This document shows positions 49,375 to 54,441 of a stretch of DNA of 64,000 nucleotides, in pieces (position 1 is the first letter of the stretch; each line of letters opens with the position of its first letter). Source of the stretch: an uncultured Acidobacteriota bacterium (lineage in GTDB: Bacteria > Acidobacteriota > Thermoanaerobaculia > Gp7-AA8); NCBI GenBank assembly GCA_963822445.1, contig CAWGHO010000003.1, positions 832,001-896,000 of the forward strand, read 5' to 3'. A model generated the notes under the pieces. That model was not told where the DNA came from. It made no database searches and worked only from the letters and a program-made list of their open reading frames with translations. The translations under genes and the position numbers were made by a program.

Positions 49375-50429
49375 AGGCCCCCTCGGTGGATGGTGCGGTG
49401 AACGCGCAGGTCCTGTTCGTAAAGCGGTTTGAGCGCGGTCATGCCCGCGGCCTGCGCGGCGATGCGCGTTGTGCCGAGGCCGAAGGCGATGCCGCTGACC
49501 CGGGTGTGGTCGTAGCCGAACTCGATGAAGACCTTGGGATGGATCATCCCCGAGCCGAGGATGGTGATCCAGCCCGCGCCGCGGCAGGTCGGGCACTCGT
49601 CGGTCTTGCCGAAGCAGACCGCGCACTGGATGTCCATGCCCACCGAGGGCTCGGTGTAGGGGTAGTACTTCGGCTTGAAGCGGAACTTGTGCTCCGCGCC
49701 GTAAATCGATTTCGCGATCTCCAGCAGCGTGCCTTTGAGATCGCCGAAGGTCAGGCCTTCCTCGACCCAGATGCCTTCGAACTGGTGAAACATCGCCAGG
49801 TGGGTCGCGTCGACAGCCTCGTTGCGATACACACGGCCCGCGGCGACGACTTTGATCGGCAGGGGAGGCTTCGATTCCAGCACGCGGGCCTGCACGGTGG
49901 TGGTGTGCGAGCGCAGGAGCATGTTGTTCGGCAGCCAGAACGTGTCCTGCATGTCCCGCGCGGGATGGTTCTCGGGGATGTTGAGCGCGTCGAAGTTGTA
50001 ATACGGCGTCTCGATGTCCGGCCCCGGCTCGAGCCGGAACCCGAGCCGGCGCATGACGTCCATGCACTTTTGATGGACCTGGGTGAGCGGATGCGTCGAG
50101 CCGCGCTGCTGGGCGATGCCGGGTAGGGTGAGGTCCTGCCACTCGCTCTCGATCTGTTTCGCAACCGCCGCCTCGGCGACTCGGGCGTTGGCTTCGTCGA
50201 GCTCGCGCTCGATGTGTGCTTGCAGGTCGTTGAGGCCTTGTGCGAATTGCGCTCTGATGTCCGCATCCATCGAGCCGAGCGATTTGAGCTGCTTTCTGAC
50301 GTCTGACTTCTTACCGAGATACTTCGTCCTTAGCTCATTCAGTTCCTCAGGGGTCTGCGCGTCTGAGAGTTCGGTATCGAACGTGGCTCGGATGTTGTCC
50401 GCCGCTTCGGCGGGTATGAGCGGTTTCAC
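49371..50429 (-). CDS. pheS: Phenylalanine--tRNA ligase alpha subunit, divergent
   Basis: HPL, NFDALN.P..HPARDMQDTF, GRVYRNE..DATH, FHQ.EG, TEPS, CxxC..CxxC, G.AFG.G; GTG start overlaps the lysS stop. Confidence 0.93.
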   Translation of the reverse strand: MKPLIPAEAADNIRATFDTELSDAQTPEELNELRTKYLGKKSDVRKQLKSLGSMDADIRAQFAQGLNDLQAHIERELDEANARVAEAAVAKQIESEWQDLTLPGIAQQRGSTHPLTQVHQKCMDVMRRLGFRLEPGPDIETPYYNFDALNIPENHPARDMQDTFWLPNNMLLRSHTTTVQARVLESKPPLPIKVVAAGRVYRNEAVDATHLAMFHQFEGIWVEEGLTFGDLKGTLLEIAKSIYGAEHKFRFKPKYYPYTEPSVGMDIQCAVCFGKTDECPTCRGAGWITILGSGMIHPKVFIEFGYDHTRVSGIAFGLGTTRIAAQAAGMTALKPLYEQDLRVHRTIHRGGL

Positions 50430-51960
50430 GCAGATTCCTCTGAGCCTGTGAGCCTCTGAGCCTCTGAGCCTTCCGGCTCCTCGGCCTCCGGCTTCATCAA
50501 CGGAAACCAAACCACATCCCGCAGGTTCGGCGCATCCGTCAGCAGGGCGACGAAGCGATCGATGCCCATGCCCCAGCCGGAGATCGGCGGCATGCCGAAC
50601 TCCATCGCCGTCAGGTAATCCTCGTCGGCGGGCATGGCCTCGTCGTCGCCTTTCTTGCGCAGCTCGGCCTGTTCCTCGAAGCGGCGGCGCTGGTCGAGCG
50701 GGTCGACGAGCTCGGAGTAGGCGTTGATCACTTCCCACGTATCGACGACGAGCTGGAAACGATCGACGGCATCGGGATTCGTGTCGCTGCGGCGAGCGAG
50801 CGGGGAGAGGTCGACGGGATGGCCGACGATGAACGTCGGCTGGATCAGCGTCGGACGCGCGGTGCGCTTGTAGAGCTGGTCGATGAGGCTTCCGCGGCCC
50901 GCACCGGGATTATCCAGCTCGACCTTCACCGCGAAGATCGCTTTGCGCAGCGAATCGGCGTCTTTGTACTGATCGATGTCGATGCCGCTGTGCTCGCGGA
51001 TCACATCGCGCGAGCCGGCGCCGCGGCCAGGGCTGCTCGAAGTCGATGGTCTTGCCGCCGCGCTCGATCTGCAGCGTGCCCACCGCCTCCTTGATCGCAT
51101 GCTTGAGCAGCGCCTCGGTGAAGGTCATGTTGTCTTCGTAGTTCCAGTAGGCCGCGTAGAACTCCAGCATCGTGAATTCCTGGAGGTGCGACGCGGCCAG
51201 ACCTTCGTTGCGGAAGCAGCGCGCGAACTCGTAGACGCGGTCGTAGCCGCCGACGATGAGACGCTTGAGATACGTCTCCGGCGCAATGCGCAGGACGAGA
51301 TCCATGTCGAGCGCGTTGTGATGCGTGAAGAACGGCCGGGCCAGAGCGCCCGACTGCGTGCGTGTTGAGGATCGGCGTCTCGACTTCGACGAAGCCGCTG
51401 CGGTTCAGGAAGTCGCGCAGCGCATTGACGGACTTCGTGCGCACGCGAAAGCGATTGCGCGTCTCTTCGTTCGACACGAGATCGAGGTAGCGCTTGCGCC
51501 AGTTCAGCTCCGATGTCTTTGACGCCCTGGTACTTGTTCGGCGGCGGATTGCAGGGTCTTGCCGAGGAAGATCCAGTTGCGGACTTTGATGGTCAGCTCG
51601 CCCTTGTCGGTGTGGTACATCTCGCCTTCGACGCCGAGGAAATCCCAGCGGTCGACGGTTTTGGAGAAGAGCTCGTACTTCTTCCGGCTCACCTCGGGAT
51701 CGTCATCGAGCTGATCGCGCGACGAGGGCGAGCTGGATGTGCCCGTCGAAGTCCTCCAGCGTGGCGAACGTGAGCTTCCCGAACTTGCGCAGCTGCCCGA
51801 CGCGACCGGCCGCGCGCACCTTCGTCCCATCCGCGAGCTTCATCGATTTCCGCGATGCGTGTGCGTGCGCTCGAAACGGTCCGGATGAACCTGAATCCCG
51901 GCGCGCCTCGAGGGCTTCTCGTTTTTCGATGCGGACGTCGCGGAGGGACTGCTCGGCCAT
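50426..51960 (-). CDS. lysS: Lysine--tRNA ligase (class II), broken by about 8 single-base insertions
   Basis: Fragments in successive frames: R.FGKLTF (OB fold), [74 protein letters not shown]. Confidence 0.92.
50437..50470. repeat. Single-arm octamer array (CCTSTGAG)x4 inside the lysS 3' end
   Basis: cctctgag cctgtgag cctctgag cctctgag; same unit family as 51983-52071. Confidence 0.85.
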
Positions 51961-51982
51961 AGGGGCGGGAGAATAGCAGACG

Positions 51983-52071
51983 AGGCTCAAAGGCTCAGAG
52001 GCTCAAAGGCTCAAAGCAGAGGCGTGTCCATTCATGACCTTTGAGCCTCTGCGCCTTTGAGCCTTTGAGCC
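51983..52071. repeat. Inverted octamer arrays (AGGCTCAR)x4 ... (CCTYTGMG)x4
   Basis: Units at 51983-52014 and 52038-52069, between divergent genes. Confidence 0.9.
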
Positions 52072-52094
52072 ATGCGATGCACAATGCCCCGCCC

Positions 52095-53311
52095 ATGAAC
52101 GTCGACCACATCCGCGCCCAGTTTCCCGCTCTCGAACGCACGCCACAACGGCCATCCCGTCGCGTACTTCGATGCGCCCGGCGGGACGCAGGTGCCGCGC
52201 GTCGTCGCGGAGGCGATGACCGACTATCTCTTTCACCACAACGCCAACACGCACTGGGACTATCCGACCAGCGAGGAGACCGACGCGATCATCAGCGGAG
52301 CGCGAGAAGCCGCGGCGGATCTGCTCGGTGCGTCACCGGACGAGATCGCCTTCGGCGCGAACATGACCACGCTCACCTTCCACCTGGCCCGCGCCCTCGG
52401 CCGGATGTGGTCGGAAGGCGACGAGGTGATCGTGACCGAGCTCGATCATCACGCCAACGTCGCGCCGTGGCGCGCGCTGGAGATCGATCGCGGCATCGAG
52501 GTCCGTTCGCGCGAAGCTGAATTGCGATGGCGGGCAGCTCGATTACGACCACCTCGCGTCGCTGGTCTCGCCGCGGACGAAGCTCATCGCCGTGGGCGGG
52601 GCGTCGAATGCGATCGGAACGATCAACGACCTGCGGCGAGTCGCGCAGATCGCCAAAGCCGCGAACGCGCTGCTGTTCGTCGACGCCGTGCATCTCGTGC
52701 CTCACGAGCTCCTCGACGTGCGCGAGATCGGCTGCGACTTCCTGGCCTGCTCGTCGTACAAGTTCTACGGTCCGCACGAGGGCATCCTCTGGGGACGCTT
52801 CGAGCTACTCGACACCCTGCCGTTTCCGAAGCTGCTGCCGGCGCCGGACACCGCGCCGGAGCGGGTGGAGACGGGAACGCAGAACCACGAAGGCATCGCC
52901 GGAATCACAGCGACGATCGATTTCCTGGCGTCGATCGGCGGAGAGGGCGGCACACGACGCGAACGGCTCGGCCGCGCCTTCGCCGGACTTCACGAAGAAG
53001 GGCAGCGGTTCGCGGCGATGATCTGGGAAGGGCTCAGCGCGTTGCCGCGAGTCCGTGTCTACGGACCGCCTCCCGGTCAGCCGCGCACGCCGACGATCTC
53101 CTTCACGATCGACGGCATGCACGCCGATGACGTGGCCCGCGCGCTTGCCGCCGAAGGTCTGTTCGTGAGCAGCGGCGACTTCTACGCGGCGACTGTCTGC
53201 GAGCGGTACGCGGTGGAGAGTCTGGTGCGGGTCGGATGCGCCTGCTACACGACGGAAAACGACGTGCGCCGGCTCGTTGACGGTGTGGCGCGGATCGCAT
53301 CGGTGCAGTAG
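52095..53311 (+). CDS. Cysteine desulfurase-like protein (TIGR01976/VC1184-type class V PLP enzyme), two +1 frameshifts (about 52140, 52510)
   Basis: R.QFPAL, YFDAPGGTQVP, FGANMT, LDHHANV.PW, ASN..GT, VDAVH, CS.YKF.GPH, ETGT, GDFYA in place of GHHCA. Confidence 0.88.
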
Positions 53312-53323
53312 GATCGACCGGCA

Positions 53324-53935
53324 ATGGCGAAACGCAGACACGAAGAAGTACAGACCTCATCCTCCAAATCGGCGATGACGGGCATGGCCGTGGCCGGACT
53401 GGCCGTGGCGGGGCTCGTCATCTGGGCGCTGACCCGCACCGTGCAGCCCGCCCCGTCGGTCGCGGCGGACATCCCCATCGAACAGACCCAGACCCAGCCC
53501 GCGACGAATACGTTGCCGCCGCTCGAGGGCATGCCGAACCCGAATCAGGCCACCGCTTCGCCTGTCCAGGTCCCGCCGGTGTCCGACGAGAACGCGAGCG
53601 TGAAGCGCATCAGCGTCACTGAACTGCAGTCGAAGGTGAGCGCGAAGCAGGTCACGGTGATCGACGTGCGGGACAAGACGACGTTCATCGCCAGCCACAT
53701 CCCCGGCTCGCTGCACGTGCCGATGGCACAGATCGAGAGCCAGGTGACCTTCCTGCCGAAGGACAAGCCGATCGTCACGTACTGTACGTGACCCAATGAA
53801 GAATCGAGCGCCCGGGCGGCGCTCATCCTGCAGCGGTACGGCTTCACCAACGTTTCGGCTCTCGAAGGCGGATATGACGCGTGGCGCACGGTCGGTGCTC
53901 CGACCGCGCAAGGGGACCCGCCGCCGATTCCTTGA
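53324..53935 (+). CDS. Membrane-anchored rhodanese, candidate selenoprotein (UGA at 53789-53791 read as Sec)
   Basis: TM helix, Pro/Thr linker, IDVR...F...HIPGS, IVTYCT[TGA]PNEESSARAALILQRYGFTNVSALEGGYDAW; the rhodanese fold is complete only with readthrough to the TGA ending at 53935. Confidence 0.85.
53792..53830 (+). promoter_or_regulatory. Candidate bacterial SECIS element
   Basis: Perfect stem GAGCGCC (53806-12) / GGCGCTC (53818-24) with loop CGGGC, 21 nt between the UGA and the loop. Confidence 0.7.
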
Positions 53936-53936
53936 T

Positions 53937-54039
53937 TAGTAGGCAGTAGGCAGTGGGCAGTAGGCAGTGGACCGCCACCCACTCCCGTCGTGGTTGGGCG
54001 GCGGCCTCCTGCCTACTGCCCACTGCCTACTGCCCACTA
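53937..54039. repeat. Inverted heptamer arrays (CAGTRGG)x4-5 ... (CTGCCYA)x4
   Basis: Units at 53937-53970 and 54009-54039, filling the rhodanese-archease spacer. Confidence 0.9.
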
Positions 54040-54441
54040 ATGTTCGAGGTCATTCATCACACGGCCGACGTGCGGCTGCGCGTTTCCGCGGCCACGCTCG
54101 AGGAGCTTTTCCGCGATGCCGTCCGCGGGATGTACGCGGTCATGCGCGGCGAAGCTCGCGGCGGCGCACCCGTTCATCGCGTGATCGCCGTCGACGAATC
54201 AGCTGACACGACCGCGCTGCTGGTCGACTTTCTGAACGAGGTCCTCAATCGCGCGCAGATCGGGCAGGAGATGTTCGAGGACGTGCGCTTCACCCGATTC
54301 GAGCCGGAGTCGCTGACCGCGGAGCTGACTGGCACAGCGCCTGCGGAGTTCGAGGAGGATGTGAAGGCGGTGACGTACCACGAAGCAGACGTCTGTCGCG
54401 AGAACGGCGGATGGACGACGATGCTGGTGTTCGACTTATGA
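54040..54441 (+). CDS. Archease
   Basis: HTADV (N-term), LLVDFLNE, VKAVTYH, C-terminal FDL; ATGA overlap with rtcB. Confidence 0.93.
   Translation: MFEVIHHTADVRLRVSAATLEELFRDAVRGMYAVMRGEARGGAPVHRVIAVDESADTTALLVDFLNEVLNRAQIGQEMFEDVRFTRFEPESLTAELTGTAPAEFEEDVKAVTYHEADVCRENGGWTTMLVFDL

Follow-up and report, generated by a model that had tools for sequence, protein, structure and literature searches.

A rhodanese gene with a predicted single membrane anchor and an in-frame UGA that almost certainly encodes selenocysteine

A rhodanese gene in the genome of an uncultured Acidobacteriota bacterium contains an in-frame TGA that, on comparison with its relatives, is almost certainly a selenocysteine codon. 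The gene lies in the window, by which we mean the whole stretch of 64,000 nucleotides that was analysed. As a whole, the data are best explained by a selenoprotein gene whose UGA is decoded under the direction of SelB and a downstream hairpin, H2, to give a 203-residue anchored rhodanese, a reading to which we assign a probability of roughly 0.88. The ribosome would read the UGA as Sec by means of SelB and Sec-tRNA(Sec), directed by H2. The product would then comprise a K/R-rich cytoplasmic tail, one transmembrane (TM) helix, a disordered Pro/Thr-rich tether of ~50 residues and the rhodanese domain. The positions of all features are given in Table 1.

Table 1. Features of the rhodanese locus, in positions of the window.
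Feature	Position	Strand	Details
Class-V aminotransferase / cysteine desulfurase-like gene	52041..53311	+	TIGR01976 in an intact ortholog
Predicted complete selenoprotein ORF	53324..53935	+	ATG at 53324; 203 codons, Sec at codon 156, then terminal TGA (53933-53935)
N-terminal TM helix (predicted)	53366..53437	+	Residues about 15-38; AF2 helix 15-38; charge counts
Pro/Thr/Ala/Ser-rich linker	53438..53593	+	Low-confidence (disordered) in the model
Rhodanese domain, Pfam PF00581	53615..53887	+	Residues 98-188; 73.3 bits, cut-off 22.2
Hairpin H1	53774..53792	+	Perfect 9+1+9 palindrome; 8-bp stem, 3-nt loop; UGA in 3' arm
Cys154 codon TGT, C of C-x-U	53783..53785	+	Codon usage comparison
UGA almost certainly read as selenocysteine (U156)	53789..53791	+	Catalytic-Cys column, rhodanese active-site loop
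Hairpin H2, SECIS-like	53806..53824	+	7-bp stem GAGCGCC/GGCGCTC (53806-53812 / 53818-53824, perfect inverted repeat), 5-nt loop CGGGC
REP-like inverted repeat	53935..54041		47-nt arms, 89% complementary; between rhodanese and archease genes

The read-through frame of 203 residues claimed in an earlier note on this DNA is present and stays open past the in-frame TGA to position 53935. Around the TGA the read-through peptide is ...IVTYCT-U-PNEESSARAALILQRYGF.... Gene callers stop the gene at 53791, and the window's own product is entered in the database with 138 aa. In public protein sets most relatives, named 'hypothetical' or 'rhodanese-like', end at 68–76% of the query, indicating that they are cut at the TGA, and the public relatives that cover 97% of the query look like Cys forms. 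Because public sets truncate the gene and its orthologs at the UGA, databases lack the active site of the whole clade. The source assembly, in which the window spans 832001–896000 of contig C3, consists of 6.0 Mb in 3 contigs at 64% GC, and its single-base quality is imperfect, as indicated by frame breaks in genes that neighbour the rhodanese gene.

The source organism clearly decodes selenocysteine. The earlier note had predicted that selA, selB, selC and selD would be found elsewhere in the genome; a genome profile search detected selA (488.6 bits), selB (368.6 bits) and selD (371 bits), all above curated cut-offs, together with a tRNA-Sec (71.1 bits) with the anticodon tca (ARAGORN). The selD gene of the source genome has its own in-frame TGA at the GG-U-ACK motif. 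Additional TGA-containing genes are FdhA (905.8 bits, one TGA) and two AhpC/TSA genes with one TGA each.

To find relatives of the rhodanese gene, we searched 61 related genomes with stops read through and kept the best 30 loci. Apart from the window's own locus, 28 of these come from the same genus and one from a different family within the same order. At the protein level they are 44–55% identical to the query. A TGA occupies one column in 28 of the best 30 loci (...V-T-Y-C-[TS]-*-P-[AN]-E-E...), a count that takes in locus L039 from the unpublished genome G025 and becomes 27 of 29 without it. The other two loci, L046 (genome G004) and L050 (G017), are Cys forms with a TGC codon in this column and read Y-C-T-C-P. 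The 47 codons past the TGA are open and conserved, with G182, G183 and W187 invariant. Our conclusions are independent of the unpublished genomes G025 and G002.

A wider set of 160 loci from two collections covers Terriglobia, Bryobacteraceae, Burkholderiales, Chloroflexota and others. In the same columns, 109 of these loci carry C-x-C and 28 carry C-x-TGA, and the closest titled matches in the wider collections are Thermoanaerobaculia MAGs. Thus, relatives with TGA or Cys in this column, for which the earlier note had proposed a search, occur in both sets, and its statement that related rhodaneses read YCxCPxE agrees with the C-x-C loci. Loss of the Sec trait was rejected as the cause of the two Cys forms among the best 30 loci, since the selA and tRNA-Sec of G017 and of G004 all score above the cut-offs. 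In G017, selD is a Cys form still carrying SECIS sequence.

Contigs of relatives in four sequencing runs (X1, X2, X3 and X20, from at most three samples) span the TGA with no alternative letter listed. These runs contain contigs of relatives only, and the best run has 0.25 of the sampled words; X20 is an RNA run, and its coverage does not show transcription. Taken together, the comparative evidence shows that the UGA at 53789–53791 is recoded, as far as sequence can, and we regard the recoding as strongly supported.

We take the hairpin H2, on comparative grounds, to be the SECIS of the rhodanese gene. The perfect 7-bp stem with loop CGGGC described in the earlier note was confirmed; 14 nt separate the UGA from the stem and 21 nt separate it from the loop. 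Folding energy was no better than that of shuffled sequences, with z = 0.12 for 62 nt (104/200 shuffles fold as well) and a non-significant z = −1.40 for 71 nt (16/200). Folding energy was therefore dropped as evidence for the hairpin, and the significance of H2 derives from the comparison with relatives. Among the 27 published Sec forms, mean third-position pairwise identity is 0.967 over codons +3 to +11 versus 0.599 elsewhere. The codons that form H2 are frozen in the Sec forms, four- and six-fold degenerate sites included (AGC 27/27, GCC 27/27, GGT 25/25, GCG 27/27 and CTC 27/27), and both Cys forms, L046 and L050, diverged exactly at these codons.

Of the 24 distinct distant Sec forms, across which the H2 core, (A)GCGCC-NGKGY-GGCGC(U), recurs, 19 have a fully paired stem (six positions) and the other 5 have five pairs. 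By contrast, full pairing occurs in only 1 of 109 Cys forms, and in 0 of 5 Cys forms whose codons specify the identical residues S-A-[RG]-A-A. In a 47-sequence alignment, 94.5% of H2 cells are paired, and H1 and H2 together have 84.3% of cells paired versus 21–49% with the partners slid. The closing pair of H2 switches from G:C to C:G in 7 of the 47 sequences. Its five core pairs are invariant and so provide no covariation evidence; they also overlap codons of the conserved S-A-x-A-A residues.

Bacterial SECIS elements are hairpins a few nucleotides past the UGA with a G, mostly GU, in the apical loop. H2 resembles the E. coli fdhF type in its position just after the UGA and in the G of its apical loop; it differs in that the window's loop, CGGGC, lacks the U and in that an extra upstream hairpin holds the UGA. 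The loop is GGUGC in 25 of 27 orthologs. The suspicion that the window's loop is defective is weakened by the same CGGGC loop in L070, L104, L109 and L165. The same design, with a 7-bp stem and a GGU-type loop, is found elsewhere in the source genome, in FdhA (loop GGUCU, 11 nt after the UGA) and in one peroxiredoxin gene (loop GGUUC, 9 nt). The rhodanese spacer of 14 nt is longer than the 9–11 nt of these genes.

A further hairpin, H1, which does not appear in the earlier note, is built from codons upstream of the UGA, the UGA itself and the next C. Conserved H1 is confined to this Thermoanaerobaculia clade. Codons −7 to −1 are near-invariant in the Sec forms of the clade (GTC 26/27, ACG 23/25, TAC 27/27, TGT 26/27 and ACG 26/26). 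The top pair of H1 requires the TGT codon for Cys154, which is used in 26 of 27 Sec forms, compared with ~22% TGT among Cys codons in the long open frames of the genome. All eight H1 pairs form in 23 of 27 Sec forms and seven of eight in the other 4, and in L041 one G:C pair is replaced by C:G, a compensatory change. The two Cys forms retain 5 and 6 of 8 pairs, with changes at pairing third positions. The distant Sec form L071 has the identical peptide, I-V-T-Y-C-T, but uses other codons for it and lacks H1, and at most 5 of 8 pairs form in 22 of 24 distant Sec forms.

As an internal control for H1, we used selD of the same genus, with 28 published Sec forms; the wider selD tally takes in the unpublished genome G002. 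In selD the frozen codons are +2 to +9 only, and one sequence has compensatory changes there. Upstream, 13 of the 14 codons from −14 to −1 vary freely at synonymous sites (0.31–0.62), and only Phe −6 is fixed (TTC 28/28). Additionally, no upstream hairpin containing the UGA was found in the FdhA and peroxiredoxin genes of the source genome. For these reasons we rejected the idea that H1 generally accompanies Sec decoding in this lineage, and its absence from these genes and from most distant Sec forms indicates that Sec insertion does not need H1. Together, H1 and H2 provide a clean natural setting in which to ask if sequence upstream of the UGA can tune Sec insertion, with selD of the same genus, which has no such upstream element, as the internal control.

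The only Pfam domain found in the protein is Rhodanese, and its match covers residues 98–188 and so spans the TGA. In a gap-free alignment with the solved rhodanese 6mxv, U156 falls on the catalytic Cys, in a loop of equal length (Y-x-Y-C-G-G-G-F-R-S-A in 6mxv, Y-C-T-U-P-N-E-E-S-S-A here). An AlphaFold2 model built with 33 sequences has a pLDDT of about 95 over residues 90–200 and places C154-T155-U156 between strand 150–153 and helix 157–171. The top Foldseek matches were all rhodanese domains (3tp9, 3nhv, 6mxv, YgaP and GlpE), and no solved structure in the Foldseek list had a C-x-C/U-P-x-E loop. With a score above the gathering cut-off and a nucleophile that opens a six-residue loop between the central strand and a helix, the domain has the features of a catalytic rhodanese.

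The active-site loop is acidic, reading U-P-N-E-E-S here and U-P-[AN]-E-E-[ST] in the orthologs. In thiosulfate sulfurtransferases this loop is basic or neutral, CRxGx[RT]-like, and binds the thiosulfate anion. The acidic loop argues against classical thiosulfate transfer and separates the protein from thiosulfate:cyanide sulfurtransferases of the GlpE/PspE/bovine type; scores against the GlpE model (54.5) and the PspE model (21.9) both fall below their cut-offs of 102. Together with the Sec/Cys pairs, the acidic C-x-U loop points to redox chemistry. Sec156 would be the nucleophile, taking a sulfane sulfur or attacking a persulfide or disulfide to form an Se-S intermediate, which Cys154 could resolve as an intramolecular selenenylsulfide. 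Such a cycle would be of the redox type, unlike simple ping-pong transfer with thiosulfate as the donor. PMC1976440 reports rhodanese selenoproteins of a UxU form, which would fit a redox role of the −2 position, and the series C-x-U, C-x-C and U-x-U argues for a two-residue redox cycle. We infer the Sec156/Cys154 chemistry tentatively and place it somewhat below even odds.

A CxU rhodanese selenoprotein is an already catalogued kind; what sets this clade apart is the architecture of single anchor and tether, the score below the NF041203 cut-off, the tight linkage to an upstream desulfurase-like gene and the presence of H1. The earlier note had stated that Sec-containing rhodaneses are known, and indeed the exact CxU motif belongs to a catalogued family (NF041203; PMC13188914 and PMC9312934). 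In these two papers, a rhodanese domain with CxU is listed as a selenoprotein family, and the family is a predicted one only. The 2022 review credits the 'form 3' rhodanese-like selenoprotein (COG0607 form 2) to Zhang and Gladyshev 2005 (bSECISearch). By the definition in PMC9312934 and PMC13188914, domain plus CxU, the protein described here is a rhodanese-like selenoprotein of form 3.

The best NCBIfam match is NF041203 (rhodanese_LYCAU, rhodanese-related (seleno)protein; 8.3e-25, model positions 15–123 of 126). With C written for U, the protein scores 86.9 bits (80.9 in a six-frame search), below the cut-off of 115 for an equivalog, and no locus in the source genome scores above that cut-off. 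The C-x-U motif of the family is present as Y-C-T-U. Our protein shares with NF041203 and form 3 the rhodanese domain, Sec in the catalytic column, Cys two positions before it and a downstream SECIS hairpin. It differs from NF041203 in the motif itself (T-Y-C-T-U here, L-Y-C-A-U there) and in length, being 203 residues long, N-terminal TM anchor and Pro/Thr-rich linker included, compared with ~126 model positions. H1 is an extra upstream hairpin relative to both NF041203 and form 3.

Among the wider relatives, Pfam confirmed fusions of VTT/DedA with Rhodanese (L164) and of Na_H_Exchanger with Rhodanese (L209). CxU selenoproteins of these DedA and Na+/H+ exchanger types, from Terriglobia, Bryobacteraceae and Chloroflexota, share with our protein the Y-C-[TS]-U-P-N-E loop, the same H2 core and an association with the membrane. 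In these fusions, the rhodanese domain is C-terminal to a multi-pass domain across a K/R-rich junction, and both the linker and H1 are lacking. The protein in the window is not a DedA-rhodanese fusion, as it has the Rhodanese domain alone and a single TM helix. A literature search found no paper joining rhodanese, DedA and selenocysteine.

E. coli YgaP (5hbl, 2moi) and PspE (2jtq) are similar in having a single rhodanese domain at or outside the inner membrane. Both match in sequence (YgaP, E = 1.1e-5; PspE, E = 1.4e-4), and YgaP is also matched by Foldseek. Unlike our protein, they have a single catalytic Cys and neither Sec nor a C-x-C/U motif. Additionally, the anchor of YgaP is C-terminal and PspE is soluble. 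In the literature as far as it was available, the single-anchor architecture of a rhodanese selenoprotein was not found described; supplementary lists of selenoproteomes may contain members of this clade.

The predicted TM helix is preceded by a K/R-rich tail (MAKRRHEE...) and followed by a conserved WALTRTV(E/Q)P motif. The same layout is found in 28 of 28 orthologs, with a MAK.RH... tail, a 19-residue hydrophobic segment ending in W-A-L, then T-R-T-V-E-P and a linker. Ortholog linkers are 45–82 residues long and consist of 50–73% Pro/Thr/Ala/Ser. Summed over the 28 orthologs, a set that includes L039 of the unpublished genome G025, there are 90 K+R and 38 D+E before the helix, versus 29 and 51 in the 15 residues after it. 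By the positive-inside rule this charge bias predicts a cytoplasmic tail and an outward-facing rhodanese domain. The location is thus a predicted one, and we consider it probable that the domain faces the periplasm (N-in/C-out). The earlier note had called the TM anchor and linker unusual. The single anchor with its tether does set this protein apart, but membrane association is the rule in the wider family, as in the DedA and Na+/H+ exchanger fusions. Among the 160 wider loci, a hydrophobic N-terminal segment is present in 18 of 28 Sec forms and in 100 of 129 Cys or other forms, with the ORF as delimited here. With our protein, a predicted selenoprotein family gains an architecture that has a single anchor and probably faces outward.

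Upstream of the rhodanese gene is a desulfurase-like gene, which in the window is split over at least two reading frames. An intact ortholog of this gene matches TIGR01976, 'cysteine desulfurase-like protein', with 432.3 bits against a cut-off of 352. Three of the 6 loci that lack this gene have less than 160 nt of upstream flank. Between the desulfurase-like and rhodanese genes, some relatives have a tandem paralog of C-x-C type that bears a signal-like N-terminus of its own (P0122).

Reading the TGA as a real stop would leave a truncated product of 155 residues, or a pseudogene, with the downstream frame as a relic. This would agree with the termination of the frame by gene callers and databases, where most matches have 68–76% coverage, and with the frame breaks in neighbouring genes of the assembly. 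We consider it highly improbable, given that the TGA column is kept in 28 of 30 loci, that the 47 downstream codons are open and conserved, that Cys forms exist in the same column and that a hairpin specific to Sec forms is present. According to the structural model, the truncated product would also lack the active-site loop and the last helix-strand-helix (H157–171, E177–180 and H183–189). Lower still is the probability that the TGA is an assembly or sequencing error for TGC or TGT in the source genome. The assembly does have errors, as the reading frames of lysS and of the aminotransferase gene are broken in the window, and the runs contain contigs of relatives only. However, the neighbouring errors are indels and not substitutions, the identical TGA is present in 27 other independent assemblies and in the relatives' contigs from the four runs, and H1 and H2, the companions of Sec forms, are both intact in the window. 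A selenocysteine codon therefore remains the preferred reading of the TGA, and the alternatives that carry more weight concern H1 and the side of the membrane.

H1, in which codons −5 to −1 pair with the UGA, may be a novel accessory element for bacterial Sec recoding that is particular to this gene, although we regard this as doubtful. Our best guess for its action is that H1 would pace ribosomes just before the UGA, so that the SECIS could refold and reload SelB; alternatively, it could couple expression to selenium supply. In PMC4513850, ribosomes are described as piling up upstream of the UGA, where some terminate for want of a refolded SECIS, which suggests that H1 might space ribosomes ahead of the UGA. 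An upstream, UGA-containing element like H1 was not found described in the literature as far as it was available. We give about even odds to an origin of H1 unrelated to Sec decoding; it would then be a palindromic site in the DNA, an element for mRNA stability or a side effect of local codon preferences. In that case one would expect H1 to be missing, as it is, from most distant Sec forms, from selD and from the FdhA and peroxiredoxin genes, and H1 must already be melted once the UGA has entered the ribosomal A site. Such an origin is harder to reconcile with the perfect pairing of H1 in most Sec forms of the clade, its decay at pairing synonymous positions in both Cys forms, the one compensatory change in L041 and the same peptide encoded by other codons in L071.

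The same selenoprotein could also have its rhodanese domain in the cytoplasm (N-out/C-in or peripheral), as a tethered acceptor for the upstream desulfurase-like enzyme. A persulfide or perselenide would then be handed over as in the IscS-ThiI or CsdA-CsdE sulfur relays. The TIGR01976 gene immediately precedes the rhodanese gene, in the same orientation, in 25 of 31 loci, both Cys forms included, with 12 nt in the window between its stop and the rhodanese ATG, and its product begins without a visible signal peptide. Additionally, DedA-rhodanese fusions have a K/R-rich stretch of the W-K-Y-W-K-R-R-R-F type (WKYWKRRRF) past the last TM helix, suggesting a cytoplasmic domain there. We nevertheless consider a cytoplasmic domain unlikely in the present protein, as the charge bias in 28 orthologs favours N-in/C-out, and the long Pro/Thr-rich tether and the tandem CxC paralog with its signal-like N-terminus (P0122) fit an extracytoplasmic site. 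The membrane side may differ between the architectures, or the outward prediction made here may be wrong.

Downstream of the rhodanese gene are the genes for archease and RtcB. The earlier note had regarded this RtcB context as unusual; RtcB does adjoin the gene, but archease and RtcB follow it in only 11 of 31 loci (10 of 30 without L039), and the tight neighbour is the desulfurase-like gene upstream. These 31-locus synteny counts include L039 of the unpublished genome G025. The partial conservation and the inverted repeat that lies between the rhodanese and archease/RtcB genes indicate that the link to RtcB is loose. The repeat probably ends the transcription unit. One of its arms matches about 42 places in the genome and thus belongs to a dispersed repeat family.

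Two genes of the window, lysS and the class-V aminotransferase gene, are each broken in frame. In the Pfam search of the window, segments 14-56, 74-161 and 187-307 of the tRNA-synt_2 profile matched lysS in different frames, as did segments 12-119 and 148-371 of Aminotran_5 in the class-V aminotransferase gene, whose orthologs have a single uninterrupted frame. Because lysS is essential, we read these breaks as probable assembly indel errors rather than marks of pseudogenes.

Some relatives have an additional gene at this locus, a tandem C-x-C rhodanese paralog that separates the Sec rhodanese from the cysteine desulfurase-like gene. This paralog is also found in genomes G015, G030 and G031, and is absent from the Sec rhodanese locus of the window's own genome, G000. 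An inverted repeat starting at position 53935 is composed of GGCAGT-type heptamer or octamer units. Its arm has ∼42 matching places in G000, and the repeat is therefore assigned to a REP-like family of dispersed palindromic elements.

Coordinates of the features discussed
Feature	Location	Strand	Description
lysS	50426-51990	-	coding sequence broken across several frames, as shown by Pfam matches
Class-V aminotransferase gene	52041-53311	+	coding sequence broken across several frames, as shown by Pfam matches
Inverted repeat	53935-54041		47-nt arms, 89% complementary
Tandem C-x-C rhodanese paralog	L150:4899-5318		139 aa; own signal-like hydrophobic N-terminus
L060	G000:C3:471697-474603		one in-frame TGA
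L063	G000:C2:970480-970869		one in-frame TGA
L064	G000:C1:1064781-1065152		one in-frame TGA
L010	G000:C2:1710833-1711771		one in-frame TGA
CxU rhodanese-VTT/DedA fusion	L164:4395-5348		selenoprotein; Bryobacteraceae MAG
CxU rhodanese-Na+/H+ exchanger fusion	L209:3681-5276		selenoprotein; Thermomicrobiales MAG

Four more genes of G000 contain an in-frame TGA, all from classic selenoprotein families: FdhA (L060), selD (L010) and two AhpC/TSA peroxiredoxin-like genes (L063, L064). Hairpins of 7 bp with GGU-type loops lie 9–11 nt past the UGA in FdhA and L064.

Compared against L231-L258 of the genus, the selD gene of G017 (L230) carries TGT (Cys) where TGA stands, and its downstream SECIS sequence is retained unchanged despite the Cys codon. 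It appears that selD in G017 switched from Sec to Cys recently. The rhodanese of G017 is also in the Cys form, and selA and tRNA-Sec are retained.

CxU rhodanese selenoproteins also occur as domain fusions; we found no literature on the VTT/DedA type (L164). In five distant Sec forms (L082, L084-L087), the delimited ORF begins just 15 codons before the rhodanese domain (MWKYWKRRRF...), whereas relatives carry a DedA domain at the upstream position. What cuts these ORFs may be a frame break or else a stop codon lying in frame farther upstream, perhaps one more TGA.
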